Numbered from the stretch's first letter, positions 14,730-24,704 are shown. The stretch is 64,000 nt of DNA from Candidatus Kaiserbacteria bacterium (GCA_963699165.1 OY969413.1:660562-724561), one strand, 5' to 3'. The notes: generated by a model from the letters alone, not told the origin. Numbers and translations are program-made.

Positions 14730-15134
14730 TTACCAAATCTCGAAGAGGTCTTCTCCGCCGACGCGGTTCTTGCGTGCCTCCGCATCGGAAATGATGCCGA
14801 GCGAAGAAGACATGATGCGCGCTCCCGTGCCGCCCTTCACGCGATGCGCCTCCGTGTGCGGAGCGTAAAGGCGGCGGCCCGGCTTGCTGATGCGCTTCAC
14901 GCCGCGGAGCTTTGCCTGACCGCGCTCGTTATAGGCGAGTGTAACAACAAGATCTTTCTTAATCTCGCTTTCGCCGCGCGCCTTCACATCGACGCTTTCA
15001 ATAAAGCCAAGCTCCTTGAGCTTCTTTGCGATTGCCGAAAGATGCACCGAGTACGGCACCGTCACATCGCGCTTGCCGATGAGTGCGGCATTTTGCAAAC
15101 GAATTATGAAATCTCCAACGCGGTCGCTTACCAT
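14730..15134 (-). CDS. rpsH: 30S ribosomal protein S8.
   Basis: S8 sequence and synteny. Confidence 0.9.
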
Positions 15135-15397
15135 GATGCTTTCTTAACGCCCGGAATCTTTCCCTCGAGCGCGAGCTCGCGGAACTGGATGCGGGACAAC
15201 CCAAAGGTGCGCATATAGCCGCGCGAACGACCGGTAATCGCGCAGCGGTTCTTCAAACGGGACGGAGCGGAGTTTCTCGGGAGCGCCTGCAGGCCTGCAG
15301 AATCACCGGCCAGCTTCAAAGCCGCACGCTTTACCGCGTACTTCTTCACGAGTTTCGCCTTTTTGGCGTATCGCGCGAGCTGGGATTTTTTGGCCAT
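15128..15397 (-). CDS. rpsN: 30S ribosomal protein S14 (long, non-zinc form).
   Basis: ...[42 protein letters not shown]. Confidence 0.85.
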
Positions 15398-15523
15398 AAG
15401 GTTGCTTACTTTCGACGTTCGTTCGGAAAAAGAGAAGCGAACCTTCTCTTTTTACTCACTCACTGGAAAGTAAAAAATAAAGCTCCGAGGAGCGTTCAGG
15501 TACTGTATCAAATAGCGTCTACG

Positions 15524-16616
15524 GCGTCAAACCTGTGTACGCGTCCAGTACTTTTGGCAGTCCCCGACGGTTAATGTACACACAATATACCGCAAGGGGG
15601 ACACCATGCCGAGCGACTGGTGCGGGCGTTTGGTGTTGTACCAAATCAGCCAGTCGACAAGCTTCAGATTGAAGGAATGAATATCGTCCCGCAGCAGGCC
15701 CCGATTCAGCATGATGAAGTCCTCGGAGACGGTGCGATTGAATCGTTCGACGTGGGCATTCATCTTGGGAGTGCGGGGGCGGGTGTGAAAGTGCGTGAGC
15801 CCGAGTTCGGCACAGGCATCCTCGAAGTGTTTGGCGAACTCGCTCCCGTTGTCGGTCTGCAACTCGTCGATATCGAAGGGGCAAACCTCGATGACTCGGC
15901 GAAGGAAGTCGTCCGCGCTTCTCGACGAGTGGTTCGTATACGCGCCCGCAAAGGCGAACTTCCGCTCCACGTCCACTGCCGTGAGGACGTACCGCTTCAC
16001 GCCGTCGATGAAGCGGACGACGGTATCGAGCTCCATGCCGCGCTTGCCGGTGCGGCGAAGCTTGGTACGGCGTTTCTGCGGTGTTTCCGTGTGATTGCCC
16101 GTACGTGCGTGGAACGAGAGCCGGCTCTGCTGCGGGAGCAGACCGCGGTTCTTCAAATCCAGAATGACCCGCCCAACGTATGACTCCGACACGGAGTACC
16201 CTTCTTCGCGCAGGAGAACGGCAAGCTTTGCTTTCCCAAGCCGGGGATGCGCCTGTCGTTCGCGGATGATGAAATCCTCGACCTCGGGCAGAACAGTCCT
16301 CCTTCGACGCGCCTTCGGCGCAGTGCTCTTCGGGTCAAGTGCATCAATGCGGCCCTCGTGGGCTTTGAGTTCCTCCTTCCAGCGATACAAGGTGCGCTCC
16401 GAGGTGCCAAAGGCGTCGTATGCGGCCTCCGTCCCGTGCATGTCCCAGAATCCCAATATCTTCACCCGTCTGTCGACTTCCTTTGGTTTCCGCATATGCC
16501 GCAATCGTATCGTCCTTTCCCACATGCTCAACCAGCCCTTCGTACCCCTGAAATTGCTTCTGATGTGCATATATCCTCGGTTATGAGGACTGCCAAATGT
16601 ATCTGAACTTATGCAA
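15524..16616 (-). mobile_element. IS481-family insertion sequence, copy A (~1.09 kb), inserted between rplE and rpsN. Imperfect ~30-bp terminal IRs TGTACGCGTCCAGTACTTTTGGCAGTCC / TGCATAAGTTCAGATACATTTGGCAGTCC.
   Basis: Near-identical direct copy of 21898..22989. IRs read directly. The left boundary is ambiguous by ~10 bp because both copies share CGTCAAA, then 4 mismatches, then TGTAC. Confidence 0.75.
15527..16570 (-). CDS. IS481-family DDE transposase (rve integrase core; 347 aa).
   Basis: N-terminal HTH region, then D...D...E core with LQTDNGSEF and ERFNRT...[11 protein letters not shown]. Confidence 0.8.
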   Translation of the reverse strand: MHIRSNFRGTKGWLSMWERTIRLRHMRKPKEVDRRVKILGFWDMHGTEAAYDAFGTSERTLYRWKEELKAHEGRIDALDPKSTAPKARRRRTVLPEVEDFIIRERQAHPRLGKAKLAVLLREEGYSVSESYVGRVILDLKNRGLLPQQSRLSFHARTGNHTETPQKRRTKLRRTGKRGMELDTVVRFIDGVKRYVLTAVDVERKFAFAGAYTNHSSRSADDFLRRVIEVCPFDIDELQTDNGSEFAKHFEDACAELGLTHFHTRPRTPKMNAHVERFNRTVSEDFIMLNRGLLRDDIHSFNLKLVDWLIWYNTKRPHQSLGMVSPLRYIVCTLTVGDCQKYWTRTQV

Positions 16617-16661
16617 CCTGATGGTGAGCAGGAATCGTGCTACCCGATAGAGGCAAAATGC

Positions 16662-17195
16662 TCAAGAATTTAACAAAACATCAACCAGCAATCTCAGGGT
16701 TTTATAACCGTTCTCAACTAACAATCTGTCTCTTCTATCATCAGGATTCTTCGCGCCATGGAATAAGTTATTTCTTATGGAATGCCAGAACTCAATCATA
16801 TTAACCCAATCCGAAAGATCCCTGATTTTCCCTTGTTCTACGCATATATGCTCTCTCGGATTCTCCTTTCCCGCGTGTGAACATTCCCAATACCAGATCG
16901 TATCAATCTCACCATTTTCACCGAGTGTACCCAACGGGCGAGTATCGAGCTCCTCTTTAATTATTTGCCAGGACTGATTCAGTTCTTGCTTTTCCTTAAC
17001 TAACGCCAAATATTCGTCCTTGTAGTAAGTGTCACGCTTTAATTCTCTGATTGCATTTGAATCAAGATTCTGGTCTACATATTTAACTCTCTTTAGAAAT
17101 CCTACAAAGGCGAGGTACTCAAAAACATATTTTGAAAAGTAGTCGTCATCTCCAGCTTTCAAATGCCAATTTCTAACAAGCTGCGTGTAATCCAT
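16662..17195 (-). CDS. Hypothetical 177-aa protein with a C-terminal Rx4HG (WHSIRNNLFHG) HEPN-like motif; candidate RNase toxin or abortive-infection effector. Sits in an AT-rich islet.
   Basis: ORF track. The motif is read directly. Composition is visibly AT-richer than the flanking r-protein genes. Confidence 0.45.
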   Translation of the reverse strand: MDYTQLVRNWHLKAGDDDYFSKYVFEYLAFVGFLKRVKYVDQNLDSNAIRELKRDTYYKDEYLALVKEKQELNQSWQIIKEELDTRPLGTLGENGEIDTIWYWECSHAGKENPREHICVEQGKIRDLSDWVNMIEFWHSIRNNLFHGAKNPDDRRDRLLVENGYKTLRLLVDVLLNS

Positions 17196-17215
17196 ATTTA
17201 GGCCTTAGACCAGCG

Positions 17216-18076
17216 TCATTTATCCCAATGTCTTTCTGGAGGTTGCAAATGGAGATTGGTCAAATCTGAGAGTTTTGTTCCCTGGCCTTCTTTATTTCTC
17301 GATACGATAAGTTGTTTCCCAGCTTGAGCAAGATCTCTCACGTCTTTGTCGTCAGATTTCAGCGCTTCATCTACGGCGTCTTCCGCCCACACGTTGCCAT
17401 ATTCCTCATAGAAATTGAAGACTGGCCGGAGTCTTTGCAATATTTCTTTTATTGCCTCAATCTCCTTAACGGAAAAAATGCTTAGTCCTTTATCGTCCGC
17501 TGGGAACCATTTCTCGGCTAAATCCTTTACAAAATAAGAATTCCAGCTCGCCACAAATCTGGGAAGAACCTCTTTGCCACCGATAAACGCAGCTCCGAGC
17601 CATGTAATTTTCTTTTGCAGAGCGTCAAAGATAAACGCGGAAAGCTGATCCCTGGCTTCTTGATTTGGAAATGATTCGAGGAAAATTTCCAAAACATCGT
17701 TCGCAGGCGGGTTCTTTCCGAAAATGTAAAGTTCGGCGAATTTGTCTACCTCGCCAATCGAATAAAATTCTTGTACAAGAAAAGAATCCTGAGTTCTATT
17801 TAAATTTCTCGCATTGAGGGCCAGTTCGTCAAATTTTTTCAAGCGCTCCGAATCTGAATCACCTATATTGCCCCGCATGTCAGCAACAATAGATTCCTTT
17901 ATTCCCCGTACGATACTTTCTTCAGCCTCATTTTCTACGCGTACTGGAGTGGTAAGTAATCGAGACATATCACCAATATTCACATTGGCCTTATCGATAA
18001 TTTCTTTCTTGACCAAGCCCATCCATTCCGGAAGTGGCAGATGATCTTTAAGAAATGGGTTAGTTTGTTCGCGCAT
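17216..18076 (-). CDS. Hypothetical 286-aa protein, upstream partner of the HEPN-like gene, in the same AT-rich islet. No recognisable motif.
   Basis: ORF track. 20-nt spacing to the downstream gene suggests co-transcription. Confidence 0.45.
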   Translation of the reverse strand: MREQTNPFLKDHLPLPEWMGLVKKEIIDKANVNIGDMSRLLTTPVRVENEAEESIVRGIKESIVADMRGNIGDSDSERLKKFDELALNARNLNRTQDSFLVQEFYSIGEVDKFAELYIFGKNPPANDVLEIFLESFPNQEARDQLSAFIFDALQKKITWLGAAFIGGKEVLPRFVASWNSYFVKDLAEKWFPADDKGLSIFSVKEIEAIKEILQRLRPVFNFYEEYGNVWAEDAVDEALKSDDKDVRDLAQAGKQLIVSRNKEGQGTKLSDLTNLHLQPPERHWDK

Positions 18077-18129
18077 GGCCTTTGCTATGTCAGATGAACT
18101 CAGATCATCTCTTTTGGTTTTATTGGAGA

Positions 18130-18678
18130 CTATTTCTTCCCCGCCTCAACGATGAGCGGCATGCCGAGATGACGGAAGAAAGCCTCGGCCTCGGCCTTCC
18201 CTTTTGCGGTCGTCACAATGGTGATTGCGAGCCCGAAAACATCCTTAAGGTCTTCATCGCTCGTCTCGGGGAAAATGGTATTTTCCTTAATGCCGATCGT
18301 GAAATTACCCATGTCGTCGATGGCTTTCGGAGACAAGCCGCGGAAGTCGCGCGTTCGCGGAAGAGCGATGTGAATGAGTTTGTCGAGAAAATCGTACATG
18401 CGGGCGCCGCGAAGCGTCACTTGAAGTCCGACCGTGTCGCCTTGGCGAACCTTGAAGGACGCGATTGAGAGGCGCGCGGCGCGCGGCGCGGGCTTCTGCC
18501 CCGTAATCGTGGCGAGGCGGTCTTGAATAAGTTCAATCTGCTTCTTGTCGCGCTTCTTGCCGACGCCGGTCGAGACGACGACTTTGCTAATGCGCGGACC
18601 TTGCATCGGACTCGTGTATCCGAAAGTTTCCGCAAGTGCGAGATAGGCTGACTGCTGGCGCTGTTTGGTAATTGACAT
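18130..18678 (-). CDS. rplE: 50S ribosomal protein L5.
   Basis: L5 sequence. Follows rplX. Confidence 0.9.
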   Translation of the reverse strand: MSITKQRQQSAYLALAETFGYTSPMQGPRISKVVVSTGVGKKRDKKQIELIQDRLATITGQKPAPRAARLSIASFKVRQGDTVGLQVTLRGARMYDFLDKLIHIALPRTRDFRGLSPKAIDDMGNFTIGIKENTIFPETSDEDLKDVFGLAITIVTTAKGKAEAEAFFRHLGMPLIVEAGKK

Positions 18679-18680
18679 AT

Positions 18681-18899
18681 TTATTTTTCTAGACGCTTCA
18701 CGTTCGAGGCGTTAATCGGGCGCGAGCGCTCGACGATGCGTCCGACTTCTCCCGTACGGCCTTTCAGGTGGCGCTTATAGAGCGCGACGCCCTCAACGAC
18801 TACGGCATTGTCTTTCGGCAATGCGCGGACAATGAGGCCGGTCTTGCCCTTGTCCTTACCCGCTATCACTTTTACCTTGTCTCCTTTTTTTACGTGCAT
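18681..18899 (-). CDS. rplX: 50S ribosomal protein L24 (72 aa).
   Basis: MHVKKGDKVKVIAGKDKGKTG... KOW motif. The track ORF is extended upstream in error. Confidence 0.85.
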   Translation of the reverse strand: MHVKKGDKVKVIAGKDKGKTGLIVRALPKDNAVVVEGVALYKRHLKGRTGEVGRIVERSRPINASNVKRLEK

Positions 18900-18909
18900 A
18901 CAAAAGAAA

Positions 18910-19287
18910 TTAGACGACATCAGCCGCAAGAGACACGATGGAGTGCCAGCCGCGCTCGGAAAGTTCGCGAGGCACCGGACCGAAAATGCGGTTTCCTTTC
19001 GGGCCCATTTCCTTGCCCTGCTTTTCGATGAGCACGACCGCGTTCTCATCAAAGCGAACATACGAACCGTCTTTGCGGGCAAAGGGTTTCACTTGGCGCA
19101 CGACAATGGCGCGGTATACATCCTTCTTCTTCACGGCCTTGCGCGGCTCTGCCGTCTGGATGGATACAATGACCGTATCGCCGATGCGCGCATAGCGGCG
19201 CTTGCTTCCGCCGATCACTTTGAAAACGCGGGCGATTTTACCGCCTGAATTGTCCGCGACCGTGACGATGGATTGTGGCTGCAACAT
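18910..19287 (-). CDS. rplN: 50S ribosomal protein L14.
   Basis: MLQPQSIVTVADNSGGK... matches L14. Confidence 0.9.
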   Translation of the reverse strand: MLQPQSIVTVADNSGGKIARVFKVIGGSKRRYARIGDTVIVSIQTAEPRKAVKKKDVYRAIVVRQVKPFARKDGSYVRFDENAVVLIEKQGKEMGPKGNRIFGPVPRELSERGWHSIVSLAADVV

Positions 19288-19288
19288 A

Positions 19289-19624
19289 TTATTTTTCCGA
19301 AGCGGCGGAACCTGCGCCCGCGACAATCGCAAACCGCTTCAACTTTGAAATCGGGCGCGTTGCCTGAATGGTGACCGTGTCGCCGACCTGCGCCGCGTTG
19401 CCCGGATTATGCGCAAGAAACTTCTTCGAGCGCACAAAGTACTTCTTGTACTTTGCATTCTTCTCGAAGCGGTCGACCTGAACGGTGGCCGTGTCTTTCA
19501 TCGCCGTCTTTATGACAACGCCGGTGAATGATTGGGGGCGGGTCCCGTTAGAAGCGCCCTTAGCGAGCGCATCGGACGCCTTTGAATCATTGTTTCTAAC
19601 GGGACGGGTAGTTTTTTGTTCCAT
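19289..19624 (-). CDS. rpsQ: 30S ribosomal protein S17 with a ~30-aa N-terminal extension that contains hairpin H1.
   Basis: S17 core FTGVVIKTAMKDTATVQVDRFEKNAKYKKYFVRSKKFLAHNPGNAAQVGDTVTIQATRPISKLKRF. Confidence 0.85.
   Translation of the reverse strand: MEQKTTRPVRNNDSKASDALAKGASNGTRPQSFTGVVIKTAMKDTATVQVDRFEKNAKYKKYFVRSKKFLAHNPGNAAQVGDTVTIQATRPISKLKRFAIVAGAGSAASEK
19542..19605 (-). repeat. Hairpin H1: arms GTCCCGTTAGAA / TTCTAACGGGAC (12-bp perfect inverted repeat) inside the rpsQ N-terminal extension.
   Basis: Read directly. Member of the CCGTTAGA/TCTAACGG family. Confidence 0.6.
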
Positions 19625-19628
19625 AAAA

Positions 19629-19895
19629 TTATTTTGCTTTCTGCGCTCGTGCTCCGTTAGAGGCGCTCGCGGTAGCCGAGCCAGACGCCAAAGGCGTCTT
19701 GCCTCTAACGGAGCGAGCATGCTGCTCGGTAAGAATGCGGGCGACCGTTGCGCGAAACTTCCGCGCGGCGTTTGGGTTCTTCGGGCGAGAACCGGCCTTG
19801 GCAAAGCGCTCGCCGCGCAAATCCGCGCGCGTCGCCGCAAGAAGCTTTTCAAGCTCCTCTCCCGTTTTCCCTGCCATGGTATCTTTTTTTGTCAT
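19629..19895 (-). CDS. rpmC: 50S ribosomal protein L29 with a C-terminal extension that contains hairpin H2.
   Basis: L29 core EELEKLLAATRADLRGERFAKA... between rplP and rpsQ. Confidence 0.8.
   Translation of the reverse strand: MTKKDTMAGKTGEELEKLLAATRADLRGERFAKAGSRPKNPNAARKFRATVARILTEQHARSVRGKTPLASGSATASASNGARAQKAK
19649..19719 (-). repeat. Hairpin H2: arms GCTCCGTTAGAGGC / GCCTCTAACGGAGC (14-bp perfect inverted repeat) inside the rpmC 3' end. The loop holds a smaller hairpin GACGCCaaaGGCGTC.
   Basis: Read directly. Confidence 0.6.
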
Positions 19896-19914
19896 AAAAA
19901 TGGTGAAAATGCAA

Positions 19915-20337
19915 TTAGCTGCGCGTTATGATGGTCGTTTTCACCGGCAACTTCATGCCTGCCTGGCGCAAATGCGCGCGGGCGATATTCTCCGGCACGC
20001 CGTCGATTTCGAAAAGCACGCGGCCCGGACGCACCTCGAAAACGTAGAACTTCGGATCGCCTTTGCCGCTACCCATGCCCACTTCAGCCGGCTTCATCGT
20101 GACCGGCCGGTCCGGGAAGACGCGAATCCAAAGTTTGCCCGTCTTTGCGGTTGCGCGCGTCAGCACCTTGCGGGCCGCTTCAATCTGATTGCTCGTCATG
20201 CGCGCGCTCGAGAGCGCTTTGAGTGCAAACGAACCGAAGGCCGCAGTCGTGCCGCGCGTATCAGGACGATTCAAACGCTTATCGCTTTTGCGCTGCGTCT
20301 GCCACTTTCGGTGTTTTACTTTTTTAGGAAACAACAT
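19915..20337 (-). CDS. rplP: 50S ribosomal protein L16.
   Basis: L16 sequence and synteny. Confidence 0.9.
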
Positions 20338-20347
20338 ACGAAAAATA

Positions 20348-21058
20348 TTATGCGCGCGTCGCAGCTTCCGGCATGCGGACCGCCGTCTTCTTGTCCTGAT
20401 AGATATTGCCGCGATAAATCCACACTTTGATGCCGATGACGCCGTACGGGAGGTATGCCTGCTCGTGTGCGAAGTCGATGTCGGCGCGGAAGGTCTGAAG
20501 CGGGATGCGTCCCTTTTTGAGCTCCTCCTTGCGGCTCATTTCGGCGCCGCCAAGGCGTCCGGAGACCGCGATGCGCACACCTTCAACCTCGCGCACCGCG
20601 ATGACCTTTTCAATCGTCTGCTTGAGCACGCGGCGGAACGGCATGCGCTTCTCAAGACCCTCGGCAATCATGTATGCGACGACTGCCGCATCCGTTTCCG
20701 GCTGGCGGACTTCATTGATGTCGAACTTGACCTGCTTGCCGGCCGGAAGCGCCGTTGCGGAAACCTTGCGGACAACATCCGTGAGTTCTGCGCGGAGCTT
20801 GCCGGCGTTTTCGCCGGAGCGGCCGATGACGAGGCCCGGGCGCGCCGTCGAAAGCACGATGCGAAGCTCGTTTTCGGAACGCTCGATTTCGATGCCGCTC
20901 GTGTAGGTGCCGCGAAGGCGCTTCGTCAAAAAACGGCGAATGGTCTCGTCGACTTTGATGTTCTCGCGGAACGCCTGCTTGTCCGCGGTGAACCAACGGC
21001 TCTTCCAGCCGCGGACGGTGCCGAGGCGGTGTGCGTAAGGATGTACGGTGTGTGTCAT
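20348..21058 (-). CDS. rpsC: 30S ribosomal protein S3.
   Basis: KH and S3-C domains; synteny. Confidence 0.9.
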   Translation of the reverse strand: MTHTVHPYAHRLGTVRGWKSRWFTADKQAFRENIKVDETIRRFLTKRLRGTYTSGIEIERSENELRIVLSTARPGLVIGRSGENAGKLRAELTDVVRKVSATALPAGKQVKFDINEVRQPETDAAVVAYMIAEGLEKRMPFRRVLKQTIEKVIAVREVEGVRIAVSGRLGGAEMSRKEELKKGRIPLQTFRADIDFAHEQAYLPYGVIGIKVWIYRGNIYQDKKTAVRMPEAATRA

Positions 21059-21065
21059 ATAAAAA

Positions 21066-21467
21066 TTATGCGAGCGTTACTTTGACGCGGCTTTTCTTGC
21101 GGCGAATCGCAGAAGCGCGGCCGAAGGCGCGCGGCATGTAGCGCTTCATCATGCCCGCGCTTTCGACGACAATCGACTGCACTTTGAGCCCCTCGACGTC
21201 TTTGCCGTCGTTCTTCGCATTGGCGGCCGCGCTCTTGATGAGCTTTGCAATCGGCTCTGCGGCGCGCTTCGGAAGAAACTCGAGTGCGGCAAGCGCGGAC
21301 GTAACCGTCTTCCCTTTTACGAGGTCGGTCACAAGGCGGACCTTGCGCGGTGTCTGGTTGTAGGTTTCGAGAGATGCGCGCGCCCCGTTAGACACAACAG
21401 AAACAGTCGCCGCGTTGCTTTTGCGGACGCCTTTTGTTTTCTTTTCTGTTGTAGCTGTTTTAGTCAT
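21066..21467 (-). CDS. rplV: 50S ribosomal protein L22.
   Basis: L22 sequence and synteny. Confidence 0.9.
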   Translation of the reverse strand: MTKTATTEKKTKGVRKSNAATVSVVSNGARASLETYNQTPRKVRLVTDLVKGKTVTSALAALEFLPKRAAEPIAKLIKSAAANAKNDGKDVEGLKVQSIVVESAGMMKRYMPRAFGRASAIRRKKSRVKVTLA

Positions 21468-21482
21468 AGGTGTCTAACGGGG
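21383..21482 (-). repeat. Hairpin H3: arms CCCCGTTAGACAC / GTGTCTAACGGGG (13-bp perfect inverted repeat, ~75-nt spacer) enclosing the rplV start codon and 5' coding region.
   Basis: Read directly. The upstream arm lies in the rpsS-rplV spacer; the downstream arm encodes VSNGA of L22. Confidence 0.6.
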
Positions 21483-21493
21483 TGTGCCATAGA

Positions 21494-21838
21494 TTATTTC
21501 TTTTTTGGTGCCGGCGCCTCCTTTGCGGACTTTGCGGACGCGATTTCCGCCTGCTGCTTCTTCTGCTCCATTTCCTTCTGCATCTTGCCTCCGTGGCGAA
21601 CGAACTTCTTCGTCGGGGAGAATTCGCCAAGGCGATGGCCGACCATTTCCTCGGAAACAAGGACTTCGAGGTGCTGCTTGCCGTTATGGACGCCAAAGGT
21701 AAAACCTATCATTTCCGGGCTAATTTGGCTGCGCCGCGCCCACGTCTTAATCACCCCCGCCGTTGACGGTTTTGCGTTTGCAACCTTCTTGAGGAGTTTG
21801 ACGTCCACAAAAGGGCCTTTGGATAGTGAGCGTGACAT
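21494..21838 (-). CDS. rpsS: 30S ribosomal protein S19 with a Lys/Ala/Gln-rich C-terminal tail.
   Basis: [12 protein letters not shown] ... [27 protein letters not shown]. Start at ATG 21836-21838; the track ORF runs on into IS-derived sequence. Confidence 0.85.
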
Positions 21839-21897
21839 AAGCAATGAAAAGCCCGCGCAAGCGCGAGATAGGTAGAATGTACAGGAATGCAAGCGAA

Positions 21898-22989
21898 TCG
21901 TCAAATAGTTGTACGCGTCCAGTACTTTTGGCAGTCCCCGACGGTTAATGTACACACAATATACCGCAAGGGGGACACCATGCCGAGCGACTGGTGCGGG
22001 CGTTTGGTGTTGTACCAGATCAGCCAGTCGACAAGCTTCAGATTGAAGGAATGAATATCGTCCCGCAGCAGGCCCCGATTCAGCATGATGAAGTCCTCGG
22101 AGACGGTGCGATTGAATCGTTCGACGTGGGCATTCATCTTGGGAGTGCGGGGGCGGGTGTGAAAGTGCGTGAGACCGAGTTCGGCACAGGCATCCTCGAA
22201 GTGTTTGGCGAACTCGCTCCCGTTGTCGGTCTGCAACTCGTCGATATCGAAGGGGCAAACCTCGATGACTCGGCGAAGGAAGTCGTCCGCGCTTCTCGAC
22301 GAGTGGTTCGTATACGCGCCCGCAAAGGCGAACTTCCGCTCCACGTCCACTGCCGTGAGGACGTACCGCTTCACGCCGTCGATGAAGCGGACGACGGTAT
22401 CGAGCTCCATGCCGCGCTTGCCGGTGCGGCGAAGCTTGGTACGGCGTTTCTGCGGTGTTTCCGTGTGATTGCCCGTACGTGCGTGGAACGAGAGCCGGCT
22501 CTGCTGCGGGAGCAGACCGCGGTTCTTCAAATCCAGAATGACCCGCCCAACGTATGACTCCGACACGGAGTGCCCTTCTTCGCGCAGGAGAACGGCAAGC
22601 TTTGCTTTCCCAAGCCGGGGATGCGCCTGTCGTTCGCGGATGATGAAATCCTCGACCTCGGGCAGAACAGTCCTCCTTCGACGCGCCTTCGGCGCAGTGC
22701 TCTTCGGGTCAAGTGCATCAATGCGGCCCTCGTGGGCTTTGAGTTCCTCCTTCCAGCGATACAAGGTGCGCTCCGAGGTGCCAAAGGCGTCGTATGCGGC
22801 CTCCGTCCCGTGCATGTCCCAGAATCCCAATATCTTCACCCGTCTGTCGACTTCCTTTGGTTTCCGCATATGCCGCAATCGTATCGTCCTTTCCCACATG
22901 CTCAACCAGCCCTTCGTACCCCTGAAATTGCTTCTGATGCGCATATATCCTCGGTTATGAGGACTGCCAAATGTATCTGAACTTATGCA
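21898..22989 (-). mobile_element. IS481-family insertion sequence, copy B, inserted between rplB and rpsS. A handful of SNPs relative to copy A.
   Basis: Direct comparison with 15524..16616. Same terminal IRs. Confidence 0.75.
21901..22944 (-). CDS. IS481-family DDE transposase, copy B (start MRIRSNFRG; the track ORF is extended into flanking sequence).
   Basis: Near-identical to 15527..16570, apart from a few substitutions such as H2R. Confidence 0.8.
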
Positions 22990-23032
22990 GCAGTTGGCCA
23001 CGAGCGACAACTTTTTGCTACACTGTCCTTAT

Positions 23033-23812
23033 ATGAAGAAAAATTCTCTTATTGCTGGAATTGTTGTCCTCGTTGTCATCGCTGCCGCCGTAGCGCTCTA
23101 TGCGACCGGAAAAATCTTCCCGCGCGAGCAGGCGACGGCAAACAATCCTGCCATTACTCTCCCGCCCAGCAGCTACTCTGAAAACGCGAAGTATTACGAC
23201 ATTGCGGCAAACTACGCCTCCACAACCCCTTTACTCACGACTGCGGGCGCTTTAGCGGACGCAACTGCGCGCTCGACGATGTACGGCTTCATCCGCGATA
23301 CCATCGTTCAATTCAAAACCGACGGCAATTTCGACAAACTCACGAGCGACGACGTGAAGGCGATGGGTTTTGACCAGGGCCGCAAAGAGAAACTGCAAAT
23401 CGTGTACATGATTTCGTCTTCTCCGCGGACGGTATCGTACATTTTTACGATTACCACAGATACGCTCGGCGCGCATCCGAATACCGCGTTCCGCACGTTC
23501 ACATTCGACACCAAGACGGGCGCGGAGCTTTCGCTTTCGGATATTTTTGCGCCGGGTTCAAACTATCTCGACACTCTCTCAACGATAAGCCGCACACAAT
23601 TGCCTACGATTATCGGTCCCGATGCGGACACGACATTCATCGCGAACGGAACCACGCCAAACGATTCTAACTTTGCGAATTTCTTCGTCGATAACAGCTC
23701 GCTCGTATTTCTCTTCCCGCCCTACCAAGTCGCTCCGTATGCGGCAGGACCGCAGACGCTTCCAATCGCGCTCTCGCAATTAAGCGGAATTTTGAAGGCG
23801 GAATACAAATAA
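23033..23812 (+). CDS. Membrane-anchored DUF3298/RsiV-like extracytoplasmic protein, encoded antisense to the S10 operon between rplB and rpsS.
   Basis: N-terminal TM helix MKKNSLIAGIVVLVVIAAAVALY. C-terminal FPPYQVAPYAAGP motif recalled from the DUF3298 family. Own strong terminator. Confidence 0.5.
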   Translation: MKKNSLIAGIVVLVVIAAAVALYATGKIFPREQATANNPAITLPPSSYSENAKYYDIAANYASTTPLLTTAGALADATARSTMYGFIRDTIVQFKTDGNFDKLTSDDVKAMGFDQGRKEKLQIVYMISSSPRTVSYIFTITTDTLGAHPNTAFRTFTFDTKTGAELSLSDIFAPGSNYLDTLSTISRTQLPTIIGPDADTTFIANGTTPNDSNFANFFVDNSSLVFLFPPYQVAPYAAGPQTLPIALSQLSGILKAEYK

Positions 23813-23852
23813 CGAAATGCCCGCGCCGAAGGCGCGGGCATTTCGTTATTTT
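23813..23852. terminator. Perfect 17-bp hairpin AACGAAATGCCCGCGCC gaag GGCGCGGGCATTTCGTT followed by TTTTTT. Bidirectional; abuts the rplB stop codon.
   Basis: Read directly. Confidence 0.65.
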
Positions 23853-24704
23853 TTAGGCGGCCTTTCGCTTCTTGCCAACCTTTCGTCTGCTGACAATAAA
23901 TACATTTGAATACTTTTTCGGAGTCCTCGTCTTCTGGCCCTTGCCGGACGGCTTGCCCCACTTCGTCTTTGCGCGGCGCAAACCGCGTCCTTGGCGTCCT
24001 TCGCCGCCGCCATGCGGATGGTCTACCGGGTTCATCGCTGTTCCGCGCACCGTCGGGCGCTTGCCCATCCAGCGGCTGCGGCCCGCTTTGCCGATGACGA
24101 CGAGATTGTATTCCTCGTTCCCCACCGTGCCGATTGAAGCCCACGCGAGGTCGGAAATCTTGCGAATTTCAGTCGACGGAAGTTTGATTTGCGCGTAGCC
24201 CGCATCATGCGCGACGACTTCGGCGAAGTTGCCTGCCGAGCGAACCAAGCTCGCGCCCGAAAGCGGAGCGATTTCGATGTTGTAGATAAAGGTTCCAACC
24301 GGAATCTTGCCAATCGGAAGGCGGTTGCCCGGAACGAGCGGCGCATTTTCCGAAACGATAAACGTGCTGCCGACTTTCACTTCCTTCGGGAGAATCACGT
24401 AGCGGCGCGCGCCGTCGCGGTAGAGCGCAAGACCGATGAAGGCCGAGCGGAACGGATCGTATTCAACCGTTTCGATTTTGGCCGGAATGTCTTTCTTGTC
24501 GTACTTGAAATCGATGTCGCGCAAACGGCGCTTGTGTCCGCCGCCTTGGTGGCGTGTCGTGATGCGACCGAAACCGTTTCGTCCGCCTTGGCCGCTTTTC
24601 ACCTTGAGGAGCGCCTTGTGCGGCGCATTGCCCGAAAGCAACTCCTTGTAAGGGAGCGTGGTCATGTGGCGGCGGCTTTTTGATGTTGGGCGGTACGTTT
24701 TCAT
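23853..24704 (-). CDS. rplB: 50S ribosomal protein L2.
   Basis: L2 sequence (GRN..G.IT.RH.GGGHKR, PVDHPHGGGEG). Confidence 0.9.
   Translation of the reverse strand: MKTYRPTSKSRRHMTTLPYKELLSGNAPHKALLKVKSGQGGRNGFGRITTRHQGGGHKRRLRDIDFKYDKKDIPAKIETVEYDPFRSAFIGLALYRDGARRYVILPKEVKVGSTFIVSENAPLVPGNRLPIGKIPVGTFIYNIEIAPLSGASLVRSAGNFAEVVAHDAGYAQIKLPSTEIRKISDLAWASIGTVGNEEYNLVVIGKAGRSRWMGKRPTVRGTAMNPVDHPHGGGEGRQGRGLRRAKTKWGKPSGKGQKTRTPKKYSNVFIVSRRKVGKKRKAA

Follow-up and report, generated by a model that had tools for sequence, protein, structure and literature searches.

Two copies of an insertion sequence (IS), here called A and B, interrupt a ribosomal protein gene cluster in a Candidatus Kaiserbacteria bacterium, a member of the Patescibacteria (Minisyncoccia) whose contig is about 993 kb long, within a 64,000-nucleotide stretch of DNA (GCA_963699165.1 OY969413.1:660562-724561) that we refer to throughout as the window. 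With all genes on the minus strand unless noted, the order is rplB, a DUF3298 gene (plus strand), IS B, rpsS, rplV, rpsC, rplP, rpmC, rpsQ, rplN, rplX, rplE, a 286-amino acid (aa) open reading frame (ORF), a 177-aa ORF, IS A, rpsN, and then rpsH onward. Alignment of the copies together with their flanks bears out the initial annotation in placing two near-identical, directly oriented elements close to these positions; each is 1080 bp long and lies on the minus strand, copy A at 15536..16615 and copy B at 21910..22989. Our principal conclusion, to which we assign a probability of roughly 0.85, is that they belong to an IS481-like family, widespread in the Patescibacteria, that integrates in one orientation and exactly 5 bp upstream of the -35 element of sigma70-type promoters.

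The 5.3 kb between the copies contains the ribosomal protein genes from rpsS through rplE together with the two orphan genes, and the suggestion in the annotation that deletion of this segment by recombination between the direct copies would be lethal, essential genes being bracketed, is a reasonable inference. Between the copies the window is matched at 100% identity by contigs of three further data sets, each broken inside the IS, and the arrangement is therefore real and recurrent.

Each copy encodes a 347-aa transposase in a single ORF that spans the element without a frameshift, starting 45 nt from the left inverted repeat (IRL) tip and remaining open through the tip of the right inverted repeat (IRR). 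The transposase of copy A (15527..16570, minus) matches Pfam rve, rve_3 and HTH_32 and ends in WTRTQV, and that of copy B (21901..22944, minus) ends in WTRTTI. Seven NCBIfam families were compared, of which NF033577 (transpos_IS481) is the best match (E 9e-54, 182.9 bits, curated cut-off 224), with the IS3 model at 93.7 bits against a cut-off of 160; because the IS481 model outscores IS3 and yet stays under its own curated cut-off, the element is best described as divergent IS481-like. It shares with members of that family such as IS481, IS1002 and ISRe46/TnRErm46 a single rve DDE transposase with an N-terminal helix-turn-helix (HTH) and no frameshift, as well as TG..CA termini, imperfect inverted repeats and a short target-site duplication (TSD). 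Membership in IS3, with which it shares a related rve-type DDE core and TG..CA ends, was considered and rejected, since there is one ORF rather than two overlapping ORFs with a programmed -1 frameshift and the IS3 score falls far under its cut-off. There is no convincing promoter in the 45 nt before the transposase start, and expression therefore presumably depends on read-through from upstream.

Element ends, target-site duplication and stop codon

Alignment of the copies with each other and with related genomes, which had been proposed as the way to define the true ends, yields an element of 1080 bp with TG..CA ends and the same termini in relatives; for copy A these limits agree with the inverted repeat comparison, with a perfect TSD, and with 21 relatives that have perfect TSDs. 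Named by transposase orientation, the IRR tip of copy A is at 15536 and the IRL tip at 16615. The termini read TGCATAAGTTCAG.. and ..CTGGACGCGTACA, and comparison of the ends of both copies shows imperfect terminal inverted repeats of about 31 nt (IRL TGCATAAGTTCAGATACATTTGGCAGTCCTC; IRR, reverse complement, TGTACGCGTCCAGTACTTTTGGCAGTCCCC) with matches at 22 of the 31 positions. The TG..CA terminal inverted repeats are kept in 49 related elements, and a TG(G/A)AC motif that resembles TTGAC is invariant in both repeats at 8-12 nt from the tip. Across the family the elements are about 1.05-1.15 kb long, with TG..CA termini, a 5-bp TSD, and one 347-aa DDE transposase.

Copies A and B differ at just four internal positions (15644, 15800, 16198 and 16566), two of the changes being synonymous and two non-synonymous; the latter are Y125H and H2R, the histidine/arginine difference at residue 2 that had been reported before. 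The run of four consecutive mismatches also reported near one end falls at 15532-15535, in the flanking 5-mer and thus outside the IS. The view that the element has been active recently is well founded, as the two copies are 99.6% identical and at least two further copies in the same strain are 99.6-99.9% identical.

With the ends fixed, TSDs could be sought as the annotation had advised. Copy A has the junctions ..CATCAGGT-IS-CAGGT-TTGACGCC in transposase orientation, with a perfect 5-bp duplication, CAGGT, flush with the inverted repeats and followed by TTGACG. The right copy of the duplication (15531..15535; ACCTG on the plus strand, CAGGT in transposase orientation) is identical to the left copy at 16616..16620. 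Copy B, which reads ..CCAACTGC-IS-ACTAT-TTGACGAT, lacks a matching duplication, its IRR 5-mer ACTAT (21905..21909) agreeing at three of five positions with the ACTGC found at IRL (22990..22994, both in transposase orientation). The layout of copy A recurs in two relatives at unrelated loci whose transposases are 70-74% identical, namely CATCC-IS-CATCC-TTGACA in L004 and GTGGA-IS-GTGGA-TTGACG in L006. A TSD of 5 bp is indistinguishable from one of 6 bp by sequence, as a T follows the TSD and a T begins IRL; we prefer 5 bp and TG..CA ends on the ground that this leaves TTGAC whole in the host DNA, just as it is in empty sites.

These junctions account for a feature that in the annotation had blurred where the IS ends, a shared CGTCAAA followed by four variable nucleotides and TGTAC. 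The shared CGTCAAA is present (15525-15531 and 21899-21905) and is the reverse complement of T plus TTGACG, that is, the last TSD base and six bases of the flank; the variable nucleotides number five rather than four and are the TSD, whose fifth base is T in both copies by chance. Of the two origins suggested for CGTCAAA, a target-sequence preference agrees with our findings, in that the hexamer coincides with a host promoter -35 and the same promoters are found in relatives that have no IS. The other, a transposase stop codon in a conserved outer segment of the IS, is correct in putting the stop outside the inverted repeat, although the stop lies in the host -35 hexamer and not in an outer IS segment. 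No stop codon exists within the element, where the frame reads ..TGG ACG CGT ACA, then NNN NNT across the duplication, and ends at the TGA of T-TGA-C. The stop of transposase A (15529-15527, minus) is thus within the -35 hexamer of the rpsN promoter, and that of transposase B (21903-21901, minus) within the -35 hexamer of the rpsS promoter. A promoter formed at a circle junction, with -35 TGGACG in IRR and the -10 in IRL, was also considered and rejected, as it fits only with a spacer of 7-9 nt where 5 is expected.

Flanks of the family and promoters in relatives lacking the element

A scan of species-representative genomes gave 80 loci (L007-L086) in metagenome-assembled genomes (MAGs) of Patescibacteria, with transposases 36-71% identical, and the right flanks were chosen by IRR sequence alone, leaving 57 that are non-redundant. 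In the right-flank logo (n=57), positions +1 to +5 carry no information, whereas +6 to +11 read TTGACA with information contents of 1.49, 1.38, 1.38, 0.83, 0.94 and 0.34; information is low from +12 to +28 and rises again at +29 to +34, which read TAtAnT (0.45, 0.82, 0.19, 0.46, 0.01 and 0.96). By its sequence this profile has every appearance of a classic sigma70 promoter whose two boxes are 17 nt apart. In 49 of the 57 flanks a TAnnnT occurs 16-18 nt past the hexamer; it is there in 32 of the 37 flanks with TTGAC as compared with 28 of the 449 TTGAC sites found elsewhere in these loci (Fisher p = 2.6e-28), and is also in register in 17 of the 20 flanks without an exact TTGAC. In over 85% of flanks the hexamer occupies exactly +6 to +11, without exception on the IRR side, and because the left (IRL) flanks of 60 elements have no signal, with information content at or below 0.17 at all 60 positions, the rule is one-sided and the orientation fixed.

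Perfect 5/5 duplications are found in 21 of 49 complete elements, where chance would give 0.05, and in 14 of these 21 the duplication is followed by TTGAC, which places the motif beyond the duplication and in host DNA. The transposases carry the same signature, in that 92 of the 120 best homologs, mostly from short metagenome contigs, end in WTRT plus exactly two residues. The last residue in the 120 is never K, E, Q, M or W and the penultimate is unrestricted, as expected if the frame closes with NNT and then TGA. Judged crudely from ORFs, the downstream gene is co-oriented at 34 loci, opposite at 12, and unclear at three. Exact look-up of both transposase variants and of the protein P0001 in the contig index gave no match, nor did the exact 33-nt IRR pattern in the first genome scan, the genome of this species being evidently absent from the collection scanned.

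Both target sites in the window were listed independently by a promoter scan. The rpsN promoter (15502..15530, minus) consists of a -35 TTGACG at 15530-15525, a 17-nt spacer, and a -10 TACAGT at 15507-15502 with TG upstream, and the rpsS promoter (21876..21904, minus) of a -35 TTGACG at 21904-21899, a 17-nt spacer ending in ..TTCCTG, and a -10 TACATT at 21881-21876. The first genes downstream are rpsN (15128..15397, minus; Pfam Ribosomal_S14 and a gene call in a same-strain contig) and rpsS (21494..21838, minus; a gene call in the identical contig L001 and translation), encoding S14 and S19 respectively. TTGAC occurs 83 times on the two strands of the 64-kb window, six of these sites have a correctly spaced -10, and two of the six carry the IS.

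We fetched the ribosomal operons of 80 relatives (L5 48-88% identical), none of which contains this transposase. More than 15 close IS-free relatives share the rpsN promoter in the form TTGAC(G/T), a 17-nt spacer (for example gcgtaggagctatttga in relatives and ccgtagacgctatttga in the window), and TACAGT or TACATT, and it is kept whether the gap between rplE and rpsN is 43 bp, in which case it overlaps the end of rplE, or is filled with 0.5-2.5 kb of other genes. A leader hairpin, ACGCTCYTCGGAGC-TTTATTTTTT and then ATG, follows the promoter in IS-free relatives, its counterpart in the window being ACGCTCCTCGGAGC and a T-run at 15472..15495 (minus), conserved in position between promoter and ATG. 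The rpsS promoter and its leader hairpin are similarly present in nine IS-free relatives (L095 and eight distinct others) as TTGACN-N17(..ttcctg)-TATCTT, the window having the hairpin CTCGCGCTTGCGCGGG and then CTTTTCATT at 21852..21867 (minus). In L095 the DUF3298 gene lies on the opposite strand between rplB and rpsS, which gives copy B an orthologous empty site in that genome. When L5, S14 and DUF3298 were looked up, the only matches were same-strain contigs broken inside the IS, with no empty-site allele of this strain among them. A search of the window against Rfam at gathering thresholds gave no match, and the leader hairpins of rpsN and rpsS are thus not known families. From consensus, conservation and position we infer that the motifs are active promoters.

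The element thus integrates with IRR toward the promoter, such that the 5-bp duplication abuts the -35 hexamer, the TGA of TTGAC is taken as the stop codon, and the promoter sequence is left intact. The targets in the window were the resident internal promoters of rpsN and rpsS, and insertion would be non-polar, with the promoters still active and the essential downstream ribosomal genes still expressed. An insertion point just outside the -35 spares these promoters, which would explain why the IS can sit inside a ribosomal gene cluster.

One relative may bear a further trace at the rpsN promoter. A search for solitary inverted repeats with up to five substitutions found none in the window and the 80 related operons; visual inspection showed one gapped IRR remnant, in L087. 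Directly upstream of the rpsN promoter there (L087:9148-9170), a degenerate IRR tip, ATGCCAAGTAATGGATGCGTACA, precedes ATGGT and TTGACG; it differs from TGCCAAAAGTACTGGACGCGTACA by a 2-nt gap and two mismatches, and no transposase is left. This has the look of a remnant from an earlier insertion at this promoter in a different lineage.

Alternative explanations and relationship to known elements

We put the odds at about even that the transposase reads the -35 sequence directly, a proposal with which both the roughly 90% conservation of the -35 and the TTGAC-like TG(G/A)AC in the inverted repeats are consistent. The target could instead be promoter-bound RNA polymerase holoenzyme (sigma region 4 or the C-terminal domain of the alpha subunit), or a DNA bend just upstream of the -35 at about -40, rather than bare TTGAC; we think this unlikely, while noting that it would account for the in-register -10 in those 17 flanks without an exact TTGAC. 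Three flanks with no recognizable -35 (L035 GGGTGG, L050 ATGCAA and L060 TTTTCT) all have an extended -10 (TGnTATAAT/TATACT) in the exact 17-nt register, and a fixed orientation requires an asymmetric cue of some kind. Set against this, the -35 (T 91%, T 89%, G 89%) is conserved above the -10, as fits direct readout of TTGAC, and most of the non-TTGAC hexamers are one or two mismatches from TTGACA; only the three cases speak for the holoenzyme. The probability that is left falls to mixed or other mechanisms. Were the holoenzyme the target, the element would be a bacterial counterpart of Ty3- and Tf1-type tethered integration, and the register at extended -10 promoters that lack a -35 would be explained. 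So would the harmless exchange of flanks in about half of the copies, recombination then reshuffling intact transcription units.

It might also be supposed that there is no target choice, insertion being near-random and the survivors simply those that spare promoters and genes in gene-dense 1-Mb genomes. These genomes are indeed tiny and dense, the -10 signal could arise in this way if only TTGAC were read, and three copies (L049, L015 and L017) depart from the rule. Selection does not set a register to the single nucleotide, however, and insertions farther upstream or in either orientation would be equally harmless; the position of the hexamer at +6 to +11 in more than 85% of flanks and the 92 of 120 proteins with exactly two extra residues tell against it in the same way. 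As selection cannot explain both a one-base register and a fixed orientation, the rule presumably reflects target choice and not merely the survival of harmless insertions, and we regard the latter as very unlikely to be the whole explanation.

Several observations nonetheless weigh against the promoter rule as we state it. The downstream gene is opposite at 12 loci, albeit by a crude orientation call; L049 occupies a promoter-free site despite a perfect TSD, and the distance is shifted in L015 and L017. No matching TSD is present in 28 of the 49 complete elements, copy B included, and the ends of these 28 are placed only by homology to verified ones. Survivorship in gene-dense genomes could contribute part of the -10 signal, and promoter activity is judged from consensus, conservation and position. 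In the window, moreover, the rpsN leader holds two terminator-like hairpins between promoter and gene. An earlier description in ISfinder or TnPedia is possible.

The initial annotation had proposed that non-ribosomal genes beyond the transposase-5' end of each copy are passengers, and the IS and its adjacent genes might accordingly be a mobile unit that landed twice in the ribosomal cluster, much as IS481-type elements such as TnRErm46 can carry cargo between their inverted repeats (PMC6794481). Non-ribosomal genes do lie on the IRL side of both copies: the 177-aa orphan gene (16662..17195, minus) and the 286-aa orphan gene (17216..18076, minus), downstream of rplE (18130..18678, minus; Pfam), beside copy A, and the 259-aa DUF3298 gene (23033..23812, plus; Pfam DUF3298, start according to the NCBI MAG), divergent from rpsS and ahead of rplB (23853..24704, minus; Pfam), beside copy B. 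The 286/177-aa cassette is in none of the 80 related operons and is hence itself an insertion, and copy B has no matching TSD. The genes are outside the inverted repeats, however, as 45 nt separate the IRL tip from the start of the transposase, and copy A must have moved alone because its perfect TSD is flush with its inverted repeats and encloses only 1080 bp. The two supposed cargoes are unrelated to each other. In the IS-free L095, L111 and L120, DUF3298 likewise lies between rplB and rpsS on the same strand, which marks it as resident rather than cargo, and an ORF start for it inside the IS at 22985 is an ORF-finder artefact, the likely start being the ATG at 23033. No extra inverted repeat was found in the window at up to five mismatches. 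Whether IS and cargo travel together elsewhere had been offered as a check, and the 286-aa gene is found with this IS nowhere else: it is a strain-specific orphan, and its four remote homologs sit without the element. At these junctions relatives have accessory genes of other kinds and no IS. All told, joint mobility of the IS and these genes seems to us very improbable indeed. Two related arrangements were also rejected. A composite transposon is contradicted by the inter-copy segment, which is the native rpsS-rplE block and syntenic in all relatives, and by the outer 5-mers, ACTGC (22990-22994) and CAGGT (15531-15535), which differ; a TnRErm46-like cargo transposon is contradicted by the lack of passengers between the inverted repeats or inside the TSD, and of any further inverted repeat in the window.

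Least credible of all is that TTGAC(G) and the stop form a conserved outer segment of the IS, or that the IS has an outward-facing promoter, as are known for IS481, for while TTGACG is identical beside both copies and the 347-aa length is kept in most homologs, a variable 5-mer that duplicates the opposite flank separates the IRR tip from TTGAC in 21 elements, the sequence past TTGACG differs among A, B and the L170 copy, the same TTGAC promoters exist in relatives without the IS, and there is no inverted counterpart on the IRL side.

Promoter-directed insertion would set the element apart from its described relatives. IS481-family members have TG..CA termini and duplicate 2-15 bp of target, usually 6 (PMC10045372), and the classical IS481 target is a palindromic NCTAGN within a 6-bp TSD, with no orientation rule (PMC6794481, PMC10045372). 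In ISRe46 the TAG of the CTAG target direct repeat is the transposase stop (PMC6794481), so that in both elements the target supplies the stop codon, here the TGA of a -35 box. Unlike the classical arrangement, the TSD here is 5 bp and uninformative and the TTGACA motif lies outside it, on one side only; the NCTAGN palindrome is absent, but is a trait of classical members rather than a strict family criterion. On this comparison the uninformative 5-bp TSD, the one-sided promoter motif outside it, the fixed orientation and the TGA taken from a -35 box would all be new to the IS481 family. Full-text searching of the literature turned up no description of promoter- or -35-directed IS481-like elements, or of IS481 in Patescibacteria; ISfinder and TnPedia fall outside the scope of that search.

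Orientation-specific insertion into recurrent intergenic sequence, with genes spared, is well known from IS1397 and ISKpn1 (repetitive extragenic palindromic, REP, and enterobacterial repetitive intergenic consensus, ERIC, sequences), IS110/IS1111 (bridge/seeker RNA) and Tn7 (attTn7). Those targets are repeats or a single site and are recognized with dedicated proteins or RNAs, whereas here the element, which has a DDE transposase only, uses the ordinary promoters that serve many unrelated genes. Ty3 (at Pol III start sites), Ty1 and Tf1 integrate at a set, short distance ahead of a transcription unit, which remains functional, and tethering to transcription factors has been shown for Ty3 and Tf1. 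Their hosts and enzyme details are unrelated to those considered here, where tethering is hypothetical.

Provided that the rule is correct, the element is a DDE insertion sequence whose target, asymmetric and fixed in orientation, lies immediately outside the -35 of ordinary promoters, a specificity that we have not found described for IS481-like or other bacterial IS elements. It would explain how transposons persist in Patescibacteria genomes of about 1 Mb with almost no spare DNA, even within the ribosomal protein cluster, and, as each right end of the IS points at a promoter, it would allow promoters in uncultivated lineages to be marked from sequence alone at no extra cost. The element would also offer a one-protein system for studying how a transposase reads a promoter, with a possible use in promoter-proximal integration, and suggests a route to genome shuffling that preserves operons. 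In the window itself, the ribosomal cluster would comprise at least three transcription units, with islands of accessory genes upstream of the rpsS and rpsN promoters.

Accessory genes, further copies and promoter-proximal features

The ribosomal cluster is split at exactly two points, rplB/rpsS and rplE/rpsN, by 0.5-4 kb of DNA that differs from genome to genome, the flanking genes being adjacent in other relatives. The right boundary of an accessory insert is always an internal promoter, and in the window the inserts span 16621-18129 and 22990-23852. Among relatives (L087-L121) the genes at these junctions include a PaaX/Cas2-like regulator, a MazF toxin, a Bro-N protein, an aspartyl protease and a 1176-aa secreted protein, none with an IS there. 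On this reading the association of the IS with accessory genes is indirect, the latter gathering upstream of both internal promoters and the former being drawn to the promoters themselves.

The 177-aa and 286-aa proteins have no match in Pfam, NCBIfam or PADLOC, and single-sequence AlphaFold (AF2) models have predicted local distance difference test (pLDDT) values of 49 and 43 respectively. Among 5.8 billion proteins the 286-aa protein matches only itself, in this strain, and an exhaustive HMMER search gave four remote homologs, in other contexts. The sole sizeable one (295 aa, 32% identity; L171-L173) is invariably encoded between a 73-aa XRE-type HTH gene upstream and a gene of about 100 aa downstream, a set that is found once near a resolvase fragment and neither in a ribosomal operon nor beside this IS. 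This suggests a small mobile or defence-like cassette.

A MAG of the same strain (GCA_049279115.1) contains at least two more near-identical copies outside the window, L169 and L170. The L170 copy precedes a 165-aa gene and reads IRR-CGGGC-TTGACA-N18-TATACT, then AAAGGAGG and ATG. The L169 copy is 7 nt beyond the stop codon of a 420-aa gene, and its left flank, ACTAT, matches the right flank of copy B. Synteny around copy B is ancestral despite its non-matching 5-mers, ACTGC and ACTAT, and the spacer between DUF3298 and rpsS measures about 120 nt in the window and about 190 nt in L095; the flanks of copy B could have arisen by a tandem double substitution, by two insertions at close range and a subsequent deletion, or by recombination between copies. 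Agreement between flanking 5-mers is bimodal in the 49 complete family members, being either perfect or random. The missing TSDs across the family may reflect either mis-joins of MAGs through repeats or real IS-mediated rearrangements and recombination between copies (for such rearrangements, compare PMC11708052).

Other features lie close to the promoters and the element ends. In the window about 72 extra nt (15398-15471, minus) separate the rpsN hairpin and T-run from the ATG, which in relatives directly follows the first T-run; the extra stretch includes the second terminator-like hairpin, AAAAAGAGAAG-GTTCG-CTTCTCTTTTT, and may act as an attenuator or be what an insertion left behind. Five nt outward from the IRL tip of copy B is a TGGCCA-N18-TACACT motif (22995-23035, plus) that ends 8 nt before the DUF3298 ATG at 23033; it would be a divergent promoter, possibly one that gives a leaderless mRNA. 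IS B thus lies between two back-to-back -35-like boxes. Inside both copies, near IRR, a promoter-like TCGGCA-17-TATATT (15584-15612 and 21958-21986, minus) points outward toward the flanking promoter, and with 9 of 12 matches in the promoter scan it is not significant on its own. Finally, the 90%-identity protein cluster represented by this transposase (P0001) also lists many initiation factor IF-3 proteins of 167-200 aa, which is probably a clustering artefact, or else reflects a gene call that is fused or reads through at a copy preceding infC.

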